From IMG/VR virus record IMGVR_UViG_3300043406_000028, positions 12,042-76,041 of that record: a stretch of DNA of 64,000 nucleotides; one strand, written 5' to 3'. Shown in pieces: positions 6,725-59,507 of the stretch; within the stretch, counting starts at the first letter, position 1, and each line of letters begins with the position of its first letter. The notes below the pieces were generated by a model. The model ran no database searches. It was not told where the DNA came from and saw only the letters and a program-made list of their open reading frames with translations. The position numbers and the translations under genes are program-made. This DNA is from a virus (taxonomy: Duplodnaviria > Caudoviricetes).

Positions 6725-8727
6725 GCTGACTTTCGCAGTGCCTGACCCTGGATATGTCCCTTGAGATATTGCTTAATCTGCCCATGCGCGGACGCCTCGT
6801 CGATCAGATCGAGGGTATGTTTGTAAGCCTTCAGGATTCGCTGAATCTCTGGTTCTTTCATGGCATAGGATACGCAGTTGGCATTGAGGCACAGGACCCC
6901 TTGTTGGGCCATTTCCTGGATGAACAGTGCCTGAATATCCGAATCCTTGAATTTGATCTTCACAAGCGGCGAGATTCCGCTGAAGTCCATCGACTTTCCA
7001 GAGCGATGCGATATGGCCGACCTGATCTTGATCCCAGTATCGTGCAGATGACGGATGACACCCTCCCGCTCCATCTTCTTGATGGTTGCCAGGGCCGCAG
7101 CGATGGACAGCGTGTCGCCGAAGAACGTGCCGGAGAAGAACACGCCACTCTTGCCGTCCATCATCTTCATGATGTCGCGCTTGCCGACCAGGGCAGAGAT
7201 TGGCATTCCATTGCCCATCGACTTGCCGAAGCAGGCCAGATCAGGTGTGACACCAAAATACTCTTGCCCTCCGCCGAGCGCATAGCGGAAGCCGGTCTGA
7301 ATCTCGTCAAAGATCAGAATTACCCCGTTCTGGGAACACCAGAGTCTTAAAGCCCTGAGGTATTCAGGATCATGCGTCGGCTCTACGATGACCGCAGCAA
7401 TCCCGCCATTCAGAAACTGCCGACAGGATTCAATATCCTTCATATCTCCGTAACTGATGACCTGTGACACTCGCTTCACGCCATCAGGGATTCCAGCGTT
7501 TTTCCCTTCCAGCCAAGCGGCTGACCAATCCGCCCATCCGTGGTATCCTCCGACCAATACATGGTCCTGACCCGTGTAAGCCCTGGCAAGCCGAACTGCG
7601 GCGCTTGTCACATCGGTTCCTGACTTGCCGAATTGGACCATTTCCGCGCACGGGATTAGTTCACAGAGCTTCTCGGCCAGTTGACACTCAAGCTTGGTAG
7701 CCAAGCTGAAGCTCATTCCGGAATTTAACTGTCTCCGGACAGCCTCATCTACGTCAGGATCGCGGTATCCTAGGACGACAGGCAGGAGTGCGCTAACCAG
7801 ATCAACGTAATCGTTGCCATCGACATCAAATATCCGAGCGCCATCCCCATGAGAAACATAAAGCGGAGCGCCTCCCGCTGGGTACCATAGGTGCGATTTA
7901 GAAAATGTCTGTGACCCAAGTGGTATTGACTTGGTTGATCGCGCCAGTAGGGCGTCTGATCTGGTATATGTTCGTGGGGGTAATCGCTCTTCTGCGATTC
8001 CTTCGTAAAACCGTTCATTTCGAATGGCTCCGGCATTGATCCCCCTCAGGGCTGGATTCAGATCAAGGATTCGCATGATCTCGGTAGACGAAGGCGGCTT
8101 GCCCATAGGGACGCGCCGCGCAATCTCCTTGCACAATTCGTAGTCCTTCTGCGTATCCAGCACCCAGCGCTCCTTATGAGCCCCAGGAAACGGGCAAATC
8201 AGGTACTCGGCAGGGAAGCGATCCTGGTTACGGATGATCCATTGTGTCACACAGTCCCGATCAGAGGGTCTGGTGGCCTCTTTCCACGCCGCTTCGAGTG
8301 CTTCGAAGGTGAAGCACTCAACATCCAGGCCGTCAGGCCACGTTGGCTGGTTGGAGCAATAGGAGGAATTGGTCATCTCCATAAGCTGGATGACCTGCCC
8401 CACCACATTCGGATCAATAAACGGACAATCGCAGGTGATACGCAGGATCACATCGGCATTACGCTTGATGGCGCACTGATAGAACCGATCCAGCACATCG
8501 GATTCCGAGCCACGCGATACATCGACATTGTTCTCTACGCACCACTTAGCGATTACGTCATCCGCAGTCAGCGTAGAGGTGGCAATGCAGACCTGATCGA
8601 CGCCTGGAGACTCACGCAAAGCTCGAACCACCCACCCAAGGACCGGCATCTTCTCCAGCGGAGCCATAACCTTGCCAGGAAATCTCGTGCTGCCCATGCG
8701 GGCCTGGGCAATAGCTAAAGTTTTCAT
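6721..8727 (-). CDS. SpsF/PseF-like cytidylyltransferase fused to a class III (GSA-like) aminotransferase
   Basis: N-terminus QARMGSTRFPGKV...RITCDCPFID; C-terminus DEIQTGFR...DLACFGKSMGNG (PLP lysine). Confidence 0.9.
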   Translation of the reverse strand: MKTLAIAQARMGSTRFPGKVMAPLEKMPVLGWVVRALRESPGVDQVCIATSTLTADDVIAKWCVENNVDVSRGSESDVLDRFYQCAIKRNADVILRITCDCPFIDPNVVGQVIQLMEMTNSSYCSNQPTWPDGLDVECFTFEALEAAWKEATRPSDRDCVTQWIIRNQDRFPAEYLICPFPGAHKERWVLDTQKDYELCKEIARRVPMGKPPSSTEIMRILDLNPALRGINAGAIRNERFYEGIAEERLPPRTYTRSDALLARSTKSIPLGSQTFSKSHLWYPAGGAPLYVSHGDGARIFDVDGNDYVDLVSALLPVVLGYRDPDVDEAVRRQLNSGMSFSLATKLECQLAEKLCELIPCAEMVQFGKSGTDVTSAAVRLARAYTGQDHVLVGGYHGWADWSAAWLEGKNAGIPDGVKRVSQVISYGDMKDIESCRQFLNGGIAAVIVEPTHDPEYLRALRLWCSQNGVILIFDEIQTGFRYALGGGQEYFGVTPDLACFGKSMGNGMPISALVGKRDIMKMMDGKSGVFFSGTFFGDTLSIAAALATIKKMEREGVIRHLHDTGIKIRSAISHRSGKSMDFSGISPLVKIKFKDSDIQALFIQEMAQQGVLCLNANCVSYAMKEPEIQRILKAYKHTLDLIDEASAHGQIKQYLKGHIQGQALRKSA

Positions 8728-53575: not shown

Positions 53576-54162
53576 GCGCCCAGGATCTGATCGACGAAGC
53601 CAAGCGTATACGCCAAAGGCTCCGTTATCCACCGAACGCGGTCCATGACCCTGGAATCGACCTGACGCGGAAATCCACAGCCCATAAGGGTTCTGAGCCT
53701 GTTCCGGACCCTCCGGTGAGGAAGGTCCTGGCCGATCCTGTGCCGGAACCAAGTTATCCACCATTGGATGTGAAGTTCCCGATCACCTTCGACGATATCC
53801 TGGATGCCGTGTCCATCCACTACGGGGTATCCGTAGGAGCCCTCAAGGGAGCCAGCAGACGGGCGCACACGTGTTTTGCCCGCTTCGTGGTGGTCTACCT
53901 ATCCCTGCGGCTTTTAGCGCGCCGTAGCCTATCCTCCATCGCCAGGGATCTGGACAAGGACCACACCTCGATCCTGCATGCCCGGAACCGGATCAATGCT
54001 ATCATCGCGGGGAATCCAGCCGTAGCGTCGGAAGTCCTGATGATAGAGGCTTACATTGCAGCTAACCATCGATCTGCCGTTTCCACCATCGGTCAATGCA
54101 GTATGGCGCTCCAATCGAGGCCGGGTCCATCGGGACAAGAAATACTCAGCCTGGGAGGCTGA
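53572..54162 (+). CDS. protein with DnaA C-terminal (domain IV) HTH-like domain
   Basis: ILDAVSIHYGVS...ARFVVVYL...SLSSIARDLDKDHTSILHA. Confidence 0.8.
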   Translation: MSAQDLIDEAKRIRQRLRYPPNAVHDPGIDLTRKSTAHKGSEPVPDPPVRKVLADPVPEPSYPPLDVKFPITFDDILDAVSIHYGVSVGALKGASRRAHTCFARFVVVYLSLRLLARRSLSSIARDLDKDHTSILHARNRINAIIAGNPAVASEVLMIEAYIAANHRSAVSTIGQCSMALQSRPGPSGQEILSLGG

Positions 54163-54418
54163 CGCCTGGGGCCACTGGCTTCAGCAGAAGCCCACCCAGA
54201 AGCTGAAATCGATTGAGGGCCACTACGCCCTCAAGATCATCCTGAATCCACCTGACAAGCGCCTCCGAGACTTGGGAAACTATGACAAGGCGCTCAGCGA
54301 CTTCCTACAAACGGCAGGAATAGTCCATAACGACTGCTTATGCCTCGATCTACATATAGTATGGGGCTCGGCAGAAGACGCTCCTAATGGAGCCAGGATG
54401 ATTGTAAGTCCTTGTTGA
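54056..54418 (+). CDS. rusA: RusA-family Holliday junction resolvase (D72 equivalent is Gly)
   Basis: LPFPPSVN, PDKRLRDLGNYDKALSDFL, IVHND. Confidence 0.8.
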   Translation: MQLTIDLPFPPSVNAVWRSNRGRVHRDKKYSAWEADAWGHWLQQKPTQKLKSIEGHYALKIILNPPDKRLRDLGNYDKALSDFLQTAGIVHNDCLCLDLHIVWGSAEDAPNGARMIVSPC

Positions 54419-55461: not shown

Positions 55462-55536
55462 TGGCAAGGGTGGCAGGTTTCGAACCCGCTCCGCATGGAT
55501 TTGGAGGCCAGCATGCTACCGTTACAACACACCCCT
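55462..55536 (-). tRNA. tRNA-Trp(CCA)
   Basis: 7-bp acceptor stem, loop CTCCAAA, TTCGAAA, CCA end; weak anticodon stem. Confidence 0.8.
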
Positions 55537-55538
55537 AT

Positions 55539-55612
55539 TGGTACCGCCTTCAGGGATTGAACCTGATTTTCCGGGGCCACAACCCAGCGTTCTGCCATTG
55601 AACTAAGGCGGC
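55539..55612 (-). tRNA. tRNA-His(GUG), no G-1, A73
   Basis: Loop TTGTGGC; full cloverleaf; CCA end. Confidence 0.9.
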
Positions 55613-55616
55613 GTAT

Positions 55617-55687
55617 TGGTTGGGGACGAGTGGATTCAAACCCTCTTCATCCGGCTCAAAACCGGATTTACCATCTTGGAATCCCCA
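55617..55687 (-). tRNA. tRNA-Gln(UUG), degenerate D-arm
   Basis: ATCCGG-TTTTGAG-CCGGAT; 3' D-strand missing; T-loop TTTGAAT. Confidence 0.6.
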
Positions 55688-55691
55688 GTAT

Positions 55692-55765
55692 TGGTAGAGC
55701 CTGAGGGGGACGATCCCTCGTCTCCTGAGTGAAAATCAGGTATGCTGCCGTTGCACTAAGGCTCC
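55692..55765 (-). tRNA. tRNA-Glu(UUC)
   Basis: CCTGA-TTTTCAC-TCAGG; T-loop ATCGTCC. Confidence 0.85.
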
Positions 55766-55770
55766 GTATT

Positions 55771-55845
55771 TGGTGCGGACTGGGAGAATCGAACTCCCTT
55801 CACTAGGTTGGAAGCCTAGGGCATCAGCCAATATACCAAGCCCGC
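55771..55845 (-). tRNA. tRNA-Gly(UCC)
   Basis: CTAGG-CTTCCAA-CCTAG. Confidence 0.9.
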
Positions 55846-55849
55846 GTAT

Positions 55850-55938
55850 TGGCGGAAAGCTGAGGTCTTGATCCCCACACCCGTTAAGGTGCCATCTCCT
55901 TAGCAGGGAGCGGCAGGCACTTGCCTGCTTAACTTTCC
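55850..55938 (-). tRNA. tRNA-Ser(GCU)
   Basis: Loop CTGCTAA; long variable arm; G73. Confidence 0.85.
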
Positions 55939-56079
55939 GTGTTCTTTGCAAAGTGTTTCAAATTCTTCCATCGACCAGTCTGAAGACGGGGTCTTAAGCT
56001 CCCGAACAGCGCCGTGGTCGAAATCATCCATCGAGATGAATTTTCCACACACATCACAGCGATTCCAATGCTCGTCCAT
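55900..56079 (-). CDS. small Zn-finger ORF (MDEHWNRCDVCGKF...LCKEH), stop inside tRNA-Ser(GCU)
   Basis: Hand-translated 59 aa; GGAG SD. Confidence 0.6.
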   Translation of the reverse strand: MDEHWNRCDVCGKFISMDDFDHGAVRELKTPSSDWSMEEFETLCKEHGKLSRQVPAAPC

Positions 56080-56095
56080 GACAGTCTCCGTTAAT

Positions 56096-56172
56096 TGGTC
56101 TTGCCGGGAGAACTCGAATCTCCATACAATCGCTTAGGAGGCGAAGGCTCTGTCCTGTTGAGCTACGGCAAG
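56096..56172 (-). tRNA. tRNA-Arg(CCU)
   Basis: TCGC-CTCCTAA-GCGA. Confidence 0.85.
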
Positions 56173-56176
56173 GTAT

Positions 56177-56251
56177 TGGCGACCACGGGAAGACTCGAAC
56201 TTCCATCCCAGCCTTTAGAAGAGGCGGCTTTATCCAGTTAAATACGTGGCC
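56177..56251 (-). tRNA. tRNA-Arg(UCU)
   Basis: GCCT-CTTCTAA-AGGC. Confidence 0.85.
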
Positions 56252-56255
56252 TTAT

Positions 56256-56330
56256 TGGAGTAGCAGGCCGGTGCTGACCCGGCTCATGGAGGTTTTGCAG
56301 ACCACCGCGTTCCCGTTTCGCCACTGCTAC
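56256..56330 (-). tRNA. tRNA-Cys(GCA)
   Basis: Loop CTGCAAA; U73; T-loop GTCAGCA. Confidence 0.85.
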
Positions 56331-56334
56331 ATAT

Positions 56335-56408
56335 TGGCACCGCTTGATGGTACTGCCCCACCGTCATCTGGTTCAGAGCCAGAGGTCCTACTTTTGAACG
56401 AAAGCGGT
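56335..56408 (-). tRNA. tRNA-Gln(CUG)
   Basis: CTGG-CTCTGAA-CCAG; T-loop GGCAGTA. Confidence 0.85.
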
Positions 56409-56410
56409 AT

Positions 56411-56485
56411 TGGTCCGGGTGGGGTGACTCGAACACCCATAGTCTCCGCCCCAAACGGAGTGACCAGCCTTTGGCCCACACCCGG
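56411..56485 (-). tRNA. tRNA-Pro(UGG)
   Basis: CTCCG-TTTGGGG-CGGAG. Confidence 0.9.
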
Positions 56486-56489
56486 ATAT

Positions 56490-56566
56490 TGGTCCTCACG
56501 GGACGATTCGAACGCCCACCTCCCGGATTCGTAGTCCGGCGCATTCTCCAGTTGTGCTACGTGAGG
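56490..56566 (-). tRNA. tRNA-Arg(ACG)
   Basis: CCGGA-CTACGAA-TCCGG. Confidence 0.92.
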
Positions 56567-56570
56567 GTAT

Positions 56571-56645
56571 TGGAGCAGCTAGCGGGTACTGACCCCGCGT
56601 TACATCCTTGAGAGGGATGCGTCCTGGCCATTAGACGATAGCTGC
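56571..56645 (-). tRNA. tRNA-Glu(CUC)
   Basis: CATCC-CTCTCAA-GGATG; T-loop GTCAGTA. Confidence 0.87.
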
Positions 56646-56651
56646 GTGTTA

Positions 56652-56763
56652 CTGGAGGTTCCGAGTGTTCCCGGATTACCATCTCCCCTCCAAGAGACCG
56701 CCAATCTACCCCAAGGTACGAAATCCCAGAGTTCCTTGGTGTCGGCTAGGATGGCTACTCCAG
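56652..56763 (-). ncRNA. candidate structured ncRNA
   Basis: CTGGAG/CTCCAG closing stem, CCATC/GATGG, CCAAGG/CCTTGG and TCCG/CGGA helices. Confidence 0.45.
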
Positions 56764-56794
56764 CGGATTCTGGGTTTGCGCTGGGAGCGCCAAT

Positions 56795-56869
56795 TGGCTG
56801 GCAAGGCAGGGATCGAACCTGCGACGGGATGGTTAACAGCCACCTGATCTACCGCTGATCTACTTGCCA
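56795..56869 (-). tRNA. tRNA-Asn(GUU)
   Basis: GGTGG-CTGTTAA-CCATC. Confidence 0.9.
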
Positions 56870-56872
56870 AAA

Positions 56873-56944
56873 TGGTGGACCAACCGGGTACTGCCCCCGG
56901 CTTTCAATGCTTGCAAGGCATCGATGCAGCCTTCTGCTTGGCCC
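56873..56944 (-). tRNA. tRNA-Ala(UGC)
   Basis: G3-U70 pair; loop CTTGCAA; short D-loop; T-loop GGCAGTA. Confidence 0.85.
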
Positions 56945-56995
56945 GTAACTTTATTGCTCCATCTGTGTTATACTGGGCATAGATAGGAGGCTTCC

Positions 56996-57211
56996 ATGCC
57001 TGATCTGATTATCCAACTTATTATCGTGATGCTGGTCTGTGGATTCCTTTATTGGGTTTGGCTCAAGCTTTCTCCATTGCTACCCATTGCCGAGCCATTC
57101 GCTCAAATCGTCAATGTCCTGATCGTCATCCTGATCGGAGCCATTGTCTTGTTCTACGCCGTCATCCCTCTACTCCGGGCCATGGGCCACATGAGTCTTG
57201 GACTTCGGTAA
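56996..57211 (+). CDS. small two-TM membrane protein, antisense within the tRNA array
   Basis: AGGAGG SD; TGtTATACT extended -10-like motif upstream; two hydrophobic helices. Confidence 0.75.
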   Translation: MPDLIIQLIIVMLVCGFLYWVWLKLSPLLPIAEPFAQIVNVLIVILIGAIVLFYAVIPLLRAMGHMSLGLR

Positions 57212-57213
57212 AT

Positions 57214-57288
57214 GGTGCCCACTCCTGGTTACGATCCAGGCTCTCTTCCTCTTCAGGGAAGCGCTTTCACCAGATTAGCTTAGTAGGC
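57214..57288 (-). tRNA. tRNA-Phe(GAA)
   Basis: CTTCC-CTGAAGA-GGAAG; T-loop ATCGTAA. Confidence 0.87.
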
Positions 57289-57291
57289 ATT

Positions 57292-57365
57292 TGGTGCGGG
57301 CTGGCGGAATCGAACCGCCGCATTCTCGTTGGCAACGAGAGAGTCTACCATTAACCTAAGCCAGC
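57292..57365 (-). tRNA. tRNA-Gly(GCC)
   Basis: CTCG-TTGCCAA-CGAG; U3-C70 mismatch. Confidence 0.85.
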
Positions 57366-57369
57366 ATAT

Positions 57370-57456
57370 TGGTGGGAAGGGGATGGATTTGAACCTCCGA
57401 ACCCCGAAGGGACTGCGTTTACAGCGCAGTTGCTTTGGCCACTTGCATACCTTCCC
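57370..57456 (-). tRNA. tRNA-Tyr(GUA)
   Basis: CTGCG-CTGTAAA-CGCAG; long variable arm. Confidence 0.92.
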
Positions 57457-57461
57457 ATAAT

Positions 57462-57537
57462 TGGTTGCGGGTGTCGGGAACGATCCGACCTGATCGGCTT
57501 ATGAGACCGTGCTGGAGCCACTCCAGTCCAACCCGCA
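57462..57537 (-). tRNA. tRNA-Met(CAU), initiator-like acceptor sequence
   Basis: Loop CTCATAA; TGCGGGT/ACCCGCA; T-loop ATCGTTC; initiator vs elongator unresolved. Confidence 0.8.
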
Positions 57538-57540
57538 AAA

Positions 57541-57676
57541 TGGTGCCGGGCTAGAACTCCCAGGCGATGCTTACTGTACATCCGAGCTTAGCATGATAAT
57601 TATTCGGCACGCGCCCAAGGGGCATCTCCTGGTATGCTGCCGCTCTCGTAGGTTTCCCAGTTCCTACGCTGCGCTT
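57541..57676 (-). ncRNA. candidate 136-nt structured RNA ending in ACCA
   Basis: Occupies a tRNA slot; CGTAGG/CCTACG, GCAT/ATGC, ATGCT/AGCAT and terminal GCC-GGG/CCC-GGC helices. Confidence 0.45.
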
Positions 57677-57769
57677 TGGCGGAGAGGGCGTGGATTCGAA
57701 CCCGCGAGACGCTTTCACGTCTGCTCGTTTTCAAGACGAGTGCCTTCAGCCAGACTCGGCCACCTCTCC
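57677..57769 (-). tRNA. tRNA-Ser(UGA)
   Basis: CTCGT-CTTGAAA-ACGAG; long variable arm. Confidence 0.92.
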
Positions 57770-57934
57770 AAGTTCTTGCCAGAAGAAATAGGAAGCATCC
57801 TCCTGGCCAAAATCTTTCTCTTTCCTCGCGTGTTCGTCGCAAAATGGATGGTCGCCAGAAAACTGCGTTCTTCGCATCCACTTAGCTGGTTTATTGCACT
57901 CCACACAATGTCGATCTAGCCCCATTTTACTCAT
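57746..57934 (-). CDS. small Zn-finger ORF (MSKMGLDRHCVEC...FCDEH), stop inside tRNA-Ser(UGA)
   Basis: GGAGA SD; CxxC...CxxH. Confidence 0.65.
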   Translation of the reverse strand: MSKMGLDRHCVECNKPAKWMRRTQFSGDHPFCDEHARKEKDFGQEDASYFFWQELGEVAESG

Positions 57935-57949
57935 GGTATTCTCCCATAT

Positions 57950-58026
57950 TGGTGAATGCGGCAAGACTCAAACTTGCATCTCCGGCCTTCGGAGGGCCGC
58001 GCTCTATCCAGTTGAGCTACGCATCC
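57950..58026 (-). tRNA. tRNA-Arg(CCG)
   Basis: CGGCC-CTCCGAA-GGCCG. Confidence 0.9.
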
Positions 58027-58358
58027 TTAGAACTGTATTTCGCTAGCCTCCGTATCGTCCCGATTAGGCTGTCATCAACCAGGATTCCTGGTGGCTTCAA
58101 TGTCTTGCCATCCATAGCCTGATACAATGCCGCTAACAAATTGTCATAATCAGGGCTGGTTGGATCAACAAATAAAACAGCCAAATCAACCGTAGAATCT
58201 ATCGGAGTTGCGATCTTAGCTGCATCGCAGGCTCTACGGATTTCCTCCCGATACTGCTGGATCATCCTGATGTGCATCCGTCTATGCGGCGCACCATGGA
58301 CAACCAATGAGAACGTAGCCGGAACAGTCTTACCATCCATTGTGGCAATGACACGCAT
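58017..58358 (-). CDS. second RusA-like protein (K76 equivalent is Ala), stop inside tRNA-Arg(CCG)
   Basis: SPDYDNLLAALYQAMDG...ILVDDSLI; GAGG SD at ATG 58358. Confidence 0.65.
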   Translation of the reverse strand: MRVIATMDGKTVPATFSLVVHGAPHRRMHIRMIQQYREEIRRACDAAKIATPIDSTVDLAVLFVDPTSPDYDNLLAALYQAMDGKTLKPPGILVDDSLIGTIRRLAKYSSKDA

Positions 58359-58370
58359 GATATCCTCTAA

Positions 58371-58465
58371 TGGTCGGCGTTGCGGGTATTGAACCCGCCC
58401 GTCTACAGCCATCTGCTGCGAAATCCGGGTTTATAAGGCCCAGCCGCTCACCTGAGCTAACGCCG
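58371..58465 (-). tRNA. tRNA-Ile(UAU) with long variable arm
   Basis: Loop CTTATAA; about 25-nt V-region containing a CAGC/GCTG stem; 95 nt. Confidence 0.75.
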
Positions 58466-58468
58466 TAA

Positions 58469-58543
58469 TGGCGCTCCGTAGGGGTTTTGATCCCCTCTCA
58501 CTGAATTGACAATCCAGCCGCCTCACCAGATGCGTAACGGAGC
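58469..58543 (-). tRNA. tRNA-Asp(GUC)
   Basis: CTGGA-TTGTCAA-TTCAG; T-loop ATCAAAA. Confidence 0.87.
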
Positions 58544-58547
58544 TTAT

Positions 58548-58621
58548 TGGTGGACCACCACGGTACTGACCCGTGTTCACAGGCTTAAGAGGCGAGTGCA
58601 TCACCTTAATGCTTGTGGTCC
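58548..58621 (-). tRNA. tRNA-Lys(CUU), mismatched anticodon stem
   Basis: Loop CTCTTAA; T-loop GTCAGTA. Confidence 0.7.
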
Positions 58622-58625
58622 GTAT

Positions 58626-58701
58626 TGGTGAACCCGGCAGGCCACGATCCTGCATCTGGTCGATTAAAAGTCGTCCGCTCTGCCAATTGAGCTACGGGTC
58701 C
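58626..58701 (-). tRNA. tRNA-Lys(UUU)
   Basis: CGA-CTTTTAA-TCG; T-loop ATCGTGG. Confidence 0.85.
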
Positions 58702-58756
58702 ATTCAAGCTGCGCTGACTTCGTTCGCATGAAGGGCATCTGCCCTGCTTGAGGTAT

Positions 58757-58830
58757 TGGTCGCTCTTCACGGTATCGATCCGTGGTCTATCGGTTATCGG
58801 CCGATTGCTCTGCCTTTGAGCTAAAGAGCG
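58757..58830 (-). tRNA. tRNA-Ile(GAU)
   Basis: ATCGG-CCGATAA-CCGAT; T-loop ATCGATA. Confidence 0.87.
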
Positions 58831-58834
58831 GTAT

Positions 58835-58909
58835 TGGTACTCCCTCCGTGACTCGAACACGGGATCACCGGGTGTAGGCCGGATGCTTTGGCCGCTAAGC
58901 TAAGGGAGC
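58835..58909 (-). tRNA. tRNA-Val(UAC)
   Basis: CCGG-CCTACAC-CCGG. Confidence 0.88.
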
Positions 58910-58914
58910 GTATT

Positions 58915-58991
58915 TGGTGCCTACACCAGGATTTGAACCTGGACTGTGAGTTATTTTGAGTAACTGGCCTCTTCCATTGGGCTATGTAGGC
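58915..58991 (-). tRNA. tRNA with CAA anticodon (Leu) and short variable loop
   Basis: AGTTA-CTCAAAA-TAACT; 6-nt V-region CACAGT; A73. Confidence 0.8.
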
Positions 58992-58992
58992 G

Positions 58993-59072
58993 TACCCCTG
59001 GGGAGACTTGAACTCCCAATCCTTTCGGCGGCAGTTTCTAAGACTGCTGTGTATGCGTTCCACCACAGGGGC
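58993..59072 (-). tRNA. tRNA-Leu(UAG), CCA not encoded
   Basis: GCAGT-CTTAGAA-ACTGC; long V-arm; 1 nt from the next tRNA. Confidence 0.85.
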
Positions 59073-59076
59073 TTAT

Positions 59077-59151
59077 TGGTGCTGTCTGGTGGCTTCGATC
59101 CACCCTCGCTGAGATACCAACTCAGTGCTCTGCCGAATGAGCTAAGACAGC
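59077..59151 (-). tRNA. tRNA-Thr(GGU)
   Basis: CTGAG-TTGGTAT-CTCAG; T-loop ATCGAAG. Confidence 0.88.
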
Positions 59152-59196
59152 GACGAGTAGGCGTGGATTATGACGCCTCGTTCGATACGGAAATGC

Positions 59197-59269
59197 ATGC
59201 TGGGCACGGTATTACACCGTTGCGACCTTCAAGGAGTTACCCCTAACGCTCTCTACTGAGCTACCAGCA
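59197..59269 (-). pseudogene. degenerate tRNA-like element (possible UAA anticodon)
   Basis: TGCTGG/CCAGCA acceptor, GCTC/GAGC D-stem, atypical anticodon loop, no CCA. Confidence 0.5.
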
Positions 59270-59306
59270 GTTCTGCGAGAACTTCCCTTTCCGCTCTCGT
59301 CTATCT

Positions 59307-59381
59307 TGGAGCCCGGTGCAGGTTTTTATCCCGCTCTTCAGCCATACAAAGGGTGCGTGCTGTCATTGACACTAACCGGGC
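59307..59381 (-). tRNA. tRNA-Thr(UGU)
   Basis: Loop TTTGTAT; T-loop ATAAAAA; D-loop lacks GG. Confidence 0.75.
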
Positions 59382-59388
59382 AATCTCT

Positions 59389-59435
59389 CACTCTCTACTT
59401 CTTCTCTTCGAAGAAGAGAGAAGAAGTAGAGAGTG
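59389..59435. repeat. perfect 19-bp polypyrimidine/polypurine inverted repeat
   Basis: 59389-59407 / 59417-59435; alternative 7-bp stem closing a C-GAA-G triloop. Confidence 0.85.
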
Positions 59436-59507
59436 GTGCTGGTGGGAGGGGTTGATTCTCCGCGCTTTCCCTTACGAAGGGACTGCTCTACGCTGAGCTA
59501 CACCAGC
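59434..59507 (-). tRNA. tRNA-Thr(CGU)
   Basis: TCCC-TTCGTAA-GGGA; first tRNA of the array. Confidence 0.85.

Follow-up and report, generated by a model that had tools for sequence, protein, structure and literature searches.

The U54-A58 (T54-A58) contact of the T-loop is near-universal and is treated as an invariant contact of tRNA. Eukaryotic initiator tRNA-Met and tRNA-Ala(AGC) are alike in replacing T54-A58 by A54-A58, a longer trans Watson-Crick/Hoogsteen pair that is accompanied by a purine at position 60 (PMC7566577; PMC7912444). The modifications m5U54 and Psi55 are described as loop-stabilising (PMC7912444). The loop is also a target of nucleases: in E. coli tRNAs, activated Cash (CRISPR-associated Schlafen) acts mainly on the UUC of the T-loop, cleaving 5' of U55, and a single change of U54 or U55 is enough to abolish this cleavage (PMC13462974); the cleavage site of CdiA-CT E479 lies between T and Psi (PMC9086364). 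At the anticodon loop, phage tRNAs are reported to evade anticodon nucleases through loop changes (PMC10264068), departing from the host at the positions read by the nuclease and staying usable (PMC10264068; for PARIS and Retron-Eco7, PMC11464382 and PMC11555353). The present analysis concerns a cluster of tRNA genes in a 64,000-nucleotide stretch of viral DNA (Duplodnaviria; Caudoviricetes), called the window below, which corresponds to bases 12042-76041 of the IMG/VR record IMGVR_UViG_3300043406_000028. Whereas the eukaryotic A54/A58 tRNAs are single species with m1A58, linked changes at 15-48 (R15/A48) and an extra D-loop residue, the replacements described here are spread over many amino-acid families of a bacterial virus and comprise two further classes, A54-U58 and G54-G58/A60.

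The T-loop was read as the seven bases between the 5-bp T-stem and the acceptor strand. Of the 33 cluster genes, 15 (45%) have a purine at position 54; they are listed below after the cluster itself, with their T-loops and, where applicable, their Rfam scores.

55462-59507, minus strand: tRNA gene cluster, 33 tRNA or tRNA-like genes with a few small open reading frames (ORFs) between them
59434-59507, minus strand: tRNA-Thr(CGU), ATCAACC, A54/A58, C60; pair 53-61 is A.C; Rfam 50.2 bits
59307-59381, minus strand: tRNA-Thr(UGU), ATAAAAA, A54/A58/A60, A56; Rfam 35.7 bits
59077-59151, minus strand: tRNA-Thr(GGU), ATCGAAG, A54/A58/G60; Rfam 55.2 bits
58757-58830, minus strand: tRNA-Ile(GAU), ATCGATA, A54/A58/A60; C at position 33; Rfam 59 bits
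58626-58701, minus strand: tRNA-Lys(UUU), ATCGTGG, A54/U58; Rfam 49.8 bits
58548-58621, minus strand: tRNA-Lys(CUU), GTCAGTA, G54/G58/A60; weak anticodon stem, 3/5 pairs; Rfam 32.1 bits
58469-58543, minus strand: tRNA-Asp(GUC), ATCAAAA, A54/A58/A60; Rfam 43.4 bits
57462-57537, minus strand: tRNA-Met/Ile2(CAU), ATCGTTC, A54/U58; unusual D-arm
57213-57288, minus strand: tRNA-Phe(GAA), ATCGTAA, A54/U58; found by ARAGORN and Rfam
56873-56944, minus strand: tRNA-Ala(UGC)-like, with G3.U70, GGCAGTA, G54/G55/G58/A60; 4-nucleotide D-loop, 7-bp anticodon stem
56571-56645, minus strand: tRNA-Glu(CUC), GTCAGTA, G54/G58/A60; found by ARAGORN and Rfam
56335-56408, minus strand: tRNA-Gln(CUG), GGCAGTA, G54/G55/G58/A60; D-loop AAAAGTA (A18 G19); Rfam 40.2 bits
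56256-56330, minus strand: tRNA-Cys(GCA), GTCAGCA, G54/G58/A60; Rfam 41 bits
55850-55938, minus strand: tRNA-Ser(GCU), ATCAAGA, A54/A58/A60; confirmed from stem geometry and a conserved orthologue
55692-55765, minus strand: tRNA-Glu(UUC), ATCGTCC, A54/U58; Rfam 58.3 bits

These genes are distributed among strict classes. G54 is combined with G58 in five of them (GTCAG in Lys-CUU, Glu-CUC and Cys; GGCAG in Gln-CUG and Ala), A54 with U58 in four (Lys-UUU, Met, Phe and Glu-UUC, all ATCGT) and A54 with A58 in six (Thr-CGU, Thr-UGU, Thr-GGU, Ile-GAU, Asp and Ser-GCU). A previous reading of the window, made from the sequence alone (the sequence-only reading), had named the same 15 genes among a total of 32 tRNAs, corrected here to 33 tRNA or tRNA-like genes, and its statement that G54 always goes with G58 and A54 with U58 or A58 was borne out: A58 is present in 18/18 T54 genes and no mixed 54/58 combination occurs in the window. 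Upon random dealing of the position-58 letters over the 33 genes, a class-consistent set has an exact p of 4.3e-8, a value that is optimistic given the paralogy of the genes. The stems had also been said to stay paired, which holds for the T-stem in 14 of the 15 genes (5/5 pairs) and fails in Thr-CGU, where A53 faces C61. Position 60 follows the same classes, with A in 5/5 G-G loops, a purine in 5/6 A-A loops and mostly T or C in the T54 loops. Relative to the universal T54-Psi55-C56 and A58, T54 is absent in 15 genes, A58 in 9, U55 in 2 and C56 in 1. The purine-54 genes serve 11 amino acids, 9 of which have no T54 gene in the cluster. The TTC sequence is kept in 15/33 genes, including all those for Arg, Leu, Gly, Val, Pro, Asn, His and Trp.

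Nearly all of the 33 genes end with an encoded NCCA followed by AT(A/T). ARAGORN with default settings recovered 22 genes, and Rfam at its gathering score 21 over the whole window; the remaining ones were added by a sensitive Rfam run, by relaxed ARAGORN and by a scan relying on stem geometry and encoded CCA only. The purine-54 genes were recovered in 8/15 cases by default ARAGORN and in 8/15 cases by the whole-window gathering run of Rfam, four more reaching at least the gathering score in the sensitive run (12/15). These 12 genes score 32-59 bits against RF00005, whose gathering score is 29. The Met, Ser-GCU and Ala genes were absent from the Rfam listings of both the gathering and the sensitive runs, and the Ala(UGC)-like gene was missed by ARAGORN and Rfam alike. 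The failure of the standard finders on purine-54 genes, the covariation of position 60 and the A-G D-loop accompanying G55 in Gln-CUG are additions to the previous reading.

The generality of the classes was assessed in two samples from IMG/VR, each comprising about 1 Mb; the GTCAGTA pattern (G54) was used to draw one and the canonical GGTTCGAATCC pattern to draw the other. The tRNAs were collected with our own cloverleaf finder, which ignores loop sequence and requires an encoded CCA, the sample being therefore a subset; it yields 0.2 false matches per shuffled 76-kb genome, both strands included. The pooled set, from which this genome and the pattern-matched tRNAs were left out, contains 661 unique phage tRNAs. 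Their 54-58 pairs are T-A in 560, A-U in 44, G-G in 18, A-A in 17 and C-A in 13, while all other combinations amount to 9, about the expected number of false positives. The association between the two positions reaches a chi-square of 1009, uncorrected for relatedness, and the number of separate loci is 22 for the A-U class, 13 for G-G and 11 for A-A. Covariation in homologous phage tRNAs had been proposed as a check of the sequence-only reading, and it returned the same classes with mixed pairs nearly absent. Position 60 is a pyrimidine in 97% of the T-A loops, A in 16/18 G-G loops, a purine in 17/17 A-A loops and never U in A-U loops; by their purine-60, the A-A loops of the window and of the other phages are like the eukaryotic A54/A58 tRNAs. 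Covariation extends to the D-loop, U55-C56 occurring with GG in 707/725 cases, G55 with AG (A18) in 55/58 and U56 with GA (A19) in 20/27. The G52-C62 pair is near fixed in the alternative classes (103/112) vs 72% in canonical loops.

In the sample drawn by the canonical pattern, a purine at position 54 was observed in 26 of the 320 tRNAs unmatched by the pattern (8%), with a maximum of 25% in a single cluster. The cultured Arthrobacter phage Atuin has A54-U58 in 1/25 tRNAs. Phage T5, which has the best-studied phage tRNA set, has purine-54 in 0/25 and is thus unusable as a model here. Over all phages, about 22-33% of the Glu, Phe, Asp and Lys tRNAs are changed and only 2/145 of the Arg and Leu tRNAs, a bias that points to constraints exerted by synthetases or other partners. 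Two simpler associations were considered and discarded. For Lys, Glu and Gln in the window, ATCGT accompanies U34 and G-G accompanies C34; a link of this kind between loop class and wobble base is absent from the pooled phage data. Avoidance of restriction sites at TTCGAA/TCGA was ruled out, since other palindromes (ATCGAT, GATC) arise in the replacement loops.

The structural integrity of the genes was examined next to that of their closest relatives. A tRNA cloverleaf comprises a 7-bp acceptor stem, a 5-bp T-stem and T- and anticodon loops of 7 nucleotides each. With the loop-agnostic finder, the cloverleaf threshold of at least 19/21 pairs is passed by 11/15 purine-54 genes vs 11/18 T54 genes, and purine-54 is therefore not tied to poorer structure. 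Minimum-energy folding gives a cloverleaf-type four-helix fold for Ala and Met, compact in the case of Ala; in the fold of Lys-CUU the D and anticodon arms are not formed. Identity elements are kept, namely G3.U70 in Ala and G1.U72/A73 in His. Two related IMG/VR loci, L009 and L010, were located through a small ORF inside the cluster (95% and 84% identical, respectively). Both have the same kind of cluster and the same three loop classes, with a purine-54 share of about 35-39% in L009 and 11-18% in L010. Comparison of the stems of the window genes with their L009 orthologues, including the purine-54 Phe, Glu-CUC and Thr-UGU genes, revealed 24 double compensated changes, 2 single changes that preserve pairing and 1 lost pair. 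This ratio of 24 compensated changes to 1 lost pair bears the signature of selection on structure, the tRNAs being under selection and not in decay.

Orthologues also switch between loop classes. Lys-CUU has GTCAGTA in the window and ATCGTTA in L010 with an identical T-stem (CACGG/CCGTG); Phe has ATCGTAA in the window and ATCGAAA (A58) in L009, the genes being 92% identical with compensated stem changes; the Glu-CUC loop is GTCAGTA in the window and in L009, and ATCGTTA in its Atuin homologue, again with an identical T-stem (GCGGG/CCCGC); and Thr-UGU has ATAAAAA in the window and the canonical TTCGATT in its 87% identical L009 orthologue. The Ser-GCU T-loop is identical in the L009 orthologue, with 82/89 bases identical over the gene.

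These data bear directly on the possibility that the purine-54 genes are pseudogenes or decaying duplicates whose pattern reflects the shared ancestry of a few mutated copies. Some impaired members (Lys-CUU, Met, Thr-UGU) and the number of genes missed by ARAGORN and Rfam would agree with it, but the classes recur in many unrelated contigs, compensated changes outnumber lost pairs by 24 to 1, the 15 genes span 11 amino acids of which 9 have no T54 gene in the cluster, and the cloverleaf pass rates of the two groups are similar. Decay is already largely refuted on these grounds and is held to be very improbable. The sequence-only reading had likewise rejected random decay in favour of alternative pairs selected to keep the elbow fold. 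Both statements are supported by the strict 54/58/60 classes of the window and of the 661 phage tRNAs, by the 18-55 and 19-56 covariation and by the balance of stem changes, which together indicate compensated alternatives maintained by purifying selection.

Besides the classes and their covariation, selection on the cloverleaf and selection against mixed states are observed. The explanation that we favour, with a probability of roughly one half, is that phage tRNAs form a compensated network of allowed states under weaker constraint and are predicted working tRNAs with three co-adapted versions of the loop. The first version consists of A54-U55-C56-G57-U58 with any base except U at position 60, the second of A54 and A58 with a purine at position 60, and the third of G54-(U/G)55-C56-A57-G58-Y59-A60. 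Each of them would place a non-Watson-Crick 54-58 pair on top of G53-C61, the A54-U58 pair being presumably a reverse-Hoogsteen pair with exchanged partners and G54-G58/A60 a purine-purine pair comparable to A54-A58. In this way the T-Psi-C sequence is lost, and the elbow and the L-shape would be preserved. The 54-58, 18-55 and 19-56 contacts of the elbow would all move among a few compensated states, a behaviour that may be general to phage tRNA clusters, and mixed states would be removed by purifying selection. The constraints by which T-Psi-C is fixed in cellular tRNAs would no longer bind phage tRNAs, which could wander among the allowed states, and the purine-54 tRNAs would be charged and used in translation.

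A number of observations weigh against this explanation. The purine-54 set includes imperfect genes (the weak anticodon stem of Lys-CUU, the odd D-arm of Met, the minimal core of Ala), and A56 of Thr-UGU has no matching partner in the D-loop. Related tRNAs are counted as independent in the pooled data, a G54 pattern served to draw one of the two IMG/VR samples, and only tRNAs with an encoded CCA are recognised by the finder. Plain wandering is further questioned by the absence of correlation across clusters between deviations at 54 and at 55-56 (rho 0.16), and by lineages in which U54-U55 is lost in about 50-74% of the tRNAs, each by its own route (70-74% in L011 and L031). Such lineage-specific loss looks directional rather than the result of general loosening. 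General relaxation as the sole cause predicts a joint rise of the two kinds of deviation and is weakened because they do not rise together.

In the unrelated phage tRNA clusters L011, L031, L064 and L107 of IMG/VR, 52-74% of the tRNAs are devoid of U54-U55, and in L011 and L107 the loss occurs mainly through TGCAA/TGCGA loops (G55) combined with A-G D-loops.

Cellular tRNAs were searched in a genome collection with a pattern anchored on the common D-arm and requiring purine-54. Among the matches listed, 116 were structurally confirmed, and 89 of these 116 are Actinomycetota tRNA-Phe(GAA) with ATCGA; the other confirmed matches among those listed are scattered single genes or tRNA arrays. The A54-A58 tRNA-Phe(GAA) is chromosomal in Acidimicrobiia, Microbacteriaceae, Arthrobacter, Bifidobacterium and Actinomyces (loci L249-L368). 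The predominance of this gene among the listed matches marks A54-A58 as an apparently fixed cellular trait of actinobacterial tRNA-Phe, a phylum-wide departure from T54. The actinobacterial gene shares the A54-A58 pair with the phage tRNAs and, because the cell must use it for all Phe codons, shows that this pair is accepted in bacterial translation. It is restricted to one species of tRNA and one phylum, whereas the phage pattern covers several classes and many amino acids with frequent switching.

The same pattern applied to 400 evenly drawn Pseudomonadota genomes returned a single purine-54 gene, which encodes a tRNA-Phe and has A54-A58-G60. With the canonical counterpart of the pattern, 641 matches were obtained in 61 Pseudomonadota genomes, i.e. 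about 10.5 per genome, and the purine-54 rate in this phylum is thus about 1 in 4,200 comparable tRNAs. A like-for-like count in the phage loci gave 1 vs 41, numbers that are too small for a comparison with the bacterial rate.

The nature of the host was approached through one further gene of the cluster and through the large terminase (TerL).

55539-55612, minus strand: tRNA-His(GUG), canonical T-loop, G1.U72, A73, without G-1

A tRNA-His with G1.U72 and A73 and without G-1 is the special alpha-proteobacterial type (PMC3064791). The best match of TerL among cultured-phage comparisons is an uncultured spring phage (47% identity), followed by Paracoccus and Roseobacter phages (36-37%); neither a cultured relative nor a direct host emerged from this comparison. 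The type of the phage tRNA-His and these nearest cultured TerL matches point to an alpha-proteobacterium as the probable host. When used as a probe, the phage tRNA-His found 2 weak matches in 401 Pseudomonadota genomes.

These results concern the proposal that the phage loops copy unusual T-loops of host tRNAs. The actinobacterial tRNA-Phe does establish that lineage-specific cellular T-loops exist, which speaks for such mimicry; on the other hand, the alpha-proteobacterial signs point to a Pseudomonadota host, where a single purine-54 gene was found in 400 sampled genomes, and mimicry is therefore unlikely. The phage Atuin has A54-U58 in 1/25 of its tRNAs, a count of phage genes. Sharing of the loops by host tRNAs, named beforehand as an observation that would speak against the sequence-only reading, was not seen in the sampled Pseudomonadota genomes apart from that single gene. 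Host mimicry is considered even less probable than decay, and the two explanations together account for only a minor part of the possibilities.

The alternative loops have consequences for proteins that act on the T-loop. In the absence of T54 they offer no substrate for m5U54 formation and no U54-U55 nuclease site, and loops with G55 cannot carry Psi55. The Cash recognition site is missing from all purine-54 genes, U54 being absent in 15 and U55 also in 2 of those. As an explanation of why phages show these loops, nuclease evasion is plausible, and the data are accounted for about equally well by an alternative state that is tolerated where constraint is weaker.

In its developed form, evasion would mean that the compensated loops are kept by positive selection, the loss of U54-U55 conferring resistance to nucleases of the host or of competitors that cut between 54 and 55; it would parallel, in the T-loop, the escape known from the anticodon loop. 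The requirement of Cash for U54 and U55 (PMC13462974) and the E479 cleavage site (PMC9086364) are consistent with it, as is the escape from anticodon nucleases by loop changes (PMC10264068). The same is true of the frequency of purine-54, which amounts to about 8% of the tRNAs of phage clusters and to 45% in this one vs about 1 in 4,200 in Pseudomonadota, of the different and uncorrelated routes by which lineages drop U54-U55 in up to 70-74% of their tRNAs, and of the frequent class switches between close orthologues with mixed states nearly absent. Several facts oppose it. With TTC kept in 15/33 genes, a general T-loop nuclease would still halt translation; Arg and Leu tRNAs are changed in only 2/145 cases, yet the substrate reported for E479 is tRNA-Arg; no purine-54 gene is present in T5, on which tRNA-based escape is modelled; and the actinobacterial tRNA-Phe indicates that the A54-A58 state can simply be tolerated. 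Escape through the anticodon loop was demonstrated by experiment, whereas in the window the changes lie in the elbow, involve compensated tertiary pairs and any escape is inferred. Positive selection by nucleases is possible and is regarded as less probable than the compensated network, at roughly one third. The more specific proposal that some phage lineages have rebuilt the elbow without T-Psi-C (by purine-54 here and by G55/A18 elsewhere) as a counter-defence against 54/55-cutting nucleases is put forward tentatively and with slightly less conviction. The enzymes at issue could be, in an equally tentative manner, Cash, other prokaryotic Schlafens and PD-(D/E)XK tRNases of the CdiA-CT E479 type.

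The sequence-only reading had inferred selected alternative pairs that avoid T-loop-recognising host enzymes. Compensation and selection are retained; avoidance of enzymes as the selected benefit is not established in view of the 15/33 genes keeping TTC, the rarity of changes in Arg and Leu and the actinobacterial A54-A58. No link was found with the ADP-ribosyltransferase (ART) toxins that had also been invoked.

Independence from modification was considered as well. Purine-purine or swapped 54-58 pairs might fold stably without m5U54 and Psi55, to the benefit of tRNAs made in an infection burst when the TrmA and TruB of the host are limiting. The alternative loops indeed cannot take m5U54, nor the G55 versions Psi55, both modifications have the stabilising role described above (PMC7912444), and the fixation of G52-C62 (103/112 vs 72%) suggests a need for extra stem stability. 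Most phage tRNAs and half of this set nevertheless keep the modifiable sequence, and the amino-acid bias is left unexplained. This explanation is considered unlikely.

These data reveal a limited number of alternative T-loops that follow strict rules (A-U; A-A with purine-60; G-G with A60) in tRNAs evidently under selection, and offer naturally occurring covariation for the study of a non-Watson-Crick tertiary pair. A54-A58 was already known in eukaryotic tRNAs; A54-U58, G54-G58/A60 and the 54/58/60 covariation in phage tRNAs are apparently new, our literature search, which left subscription journals mostly uncovered, having found no description of these two classes or of systematic covariation of this kind, so that priority is not certain. 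Phage tRNA repertoires are under-counted because the standard finders miss many such genes (8/15 found by ARAGORN). T-loop nucleases of bacterial immunity were published recently and their authors left the fate of phage tRNAs open (PMC13462974); the cluster provides natural substrates for the question of escape by rewiring of the elbow. If counter-defence were true, the arms race over tRNAs would be fought on two fronts, the anticodon loop and the elbow. Compensated elbow variants are also candidate scaffolds for tRNAs that would go unseen by host T-loop enzymes.

Several members of the cluster are unusual in other respects. A 95-nucleotide tRNA-like gene at 58371-58465 (minus strand) has the canonical T-loop TTCAATA, a variable arm of about 24 nucleotides and the anticodon region CCUUAUAAA, which can be read either as a 7-nucleotide loop, CUUAUAA, with UAU as anticodon and C.A at its closure, or as a 9-nucleotide loop. 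The gene is kept in L009 (88/95 bases) and L010 (70/95), and a UAU tRNA with a 22-nucleotide variable arm is present in the unrelated phage locus L011 too; a long-arm tRNA reading AUA would be unusual. In the T-stem of three genes, a single bulged A apparently follows C62: Ser-UGA at 57677-57769 (GCGGG/CC-A-CGC), Tyr-GUA at 57371-57456 (GGAGG/CC-A-TCC) and Gln-UUG at 55616-55689 (GAGGG/CC-A-CTC), all on the minus strand. The bulge is present in the fold of Gln-UUG, a gene missed by Rfam and by ARAGORN, the latter reporting the opposite strand only. The near-universal U33 is replaced by C in Val-UAC (58835-58909, CCTACAC) and in Ile-GAU (CCGATAA), both on the minus strand. In Arg-CCU (56096-56172, minus strand), A53-U61 replaces the conserved G53-C61, the T-loop being otherwise canonical. 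The tRNA-like sequence at 59194-59269 (minus strand) has the T-loop TGTAATA, an anticodon loop starting with G-G and no encoded CCA; no orthologue of it was found in L009 or L010, and it may be a degenerate tRNA. Leu-UAG (58990-59072, minus strand) is the sole clear tRNA of the cluster without encoded CCA and directly abuts Leu-CAA (…GGGGTAC|GCCTACA…).

The source record is a 76,041-bp IMG/VR virus with direct terminal repeats, rated complete, which encodes a large terminase, a portal and tail proteins. A DNA search for close phage relatives returned none. No tRNA-processing or tRNA-modifying gene was found among 10 scanned ORFs near the cluster. The ORF at 58020-58361, inside the cluster, was considered as RusA and ruled out, as it has no Pfam match; RusA is encoded at 54056-54418. 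A long near-perfect inverted repeat, TC/GA-rich with TTCGAA at its centre, lies between Thr-CGU and Thr-UGU (59385-59440), where Rfam gave spurious microRNA matches only. A similar palindrome is found at about 7290-7340 of the genome, upstream of the window, and both repeats may be terminators or processing sites. The latter lies beside two tandem tRNA-Glu-like genes located outside the main cluster, before the start of the window (genome 7128-7285, minus strand). One of these has the loop GTCGGTA, i.e. the G54-G58-A60 motif, flanked by C and A and not by G53-C61. Just past them, at about 7400-7500 of the genome, runs a series of GACCYA-type hexamer repeats.

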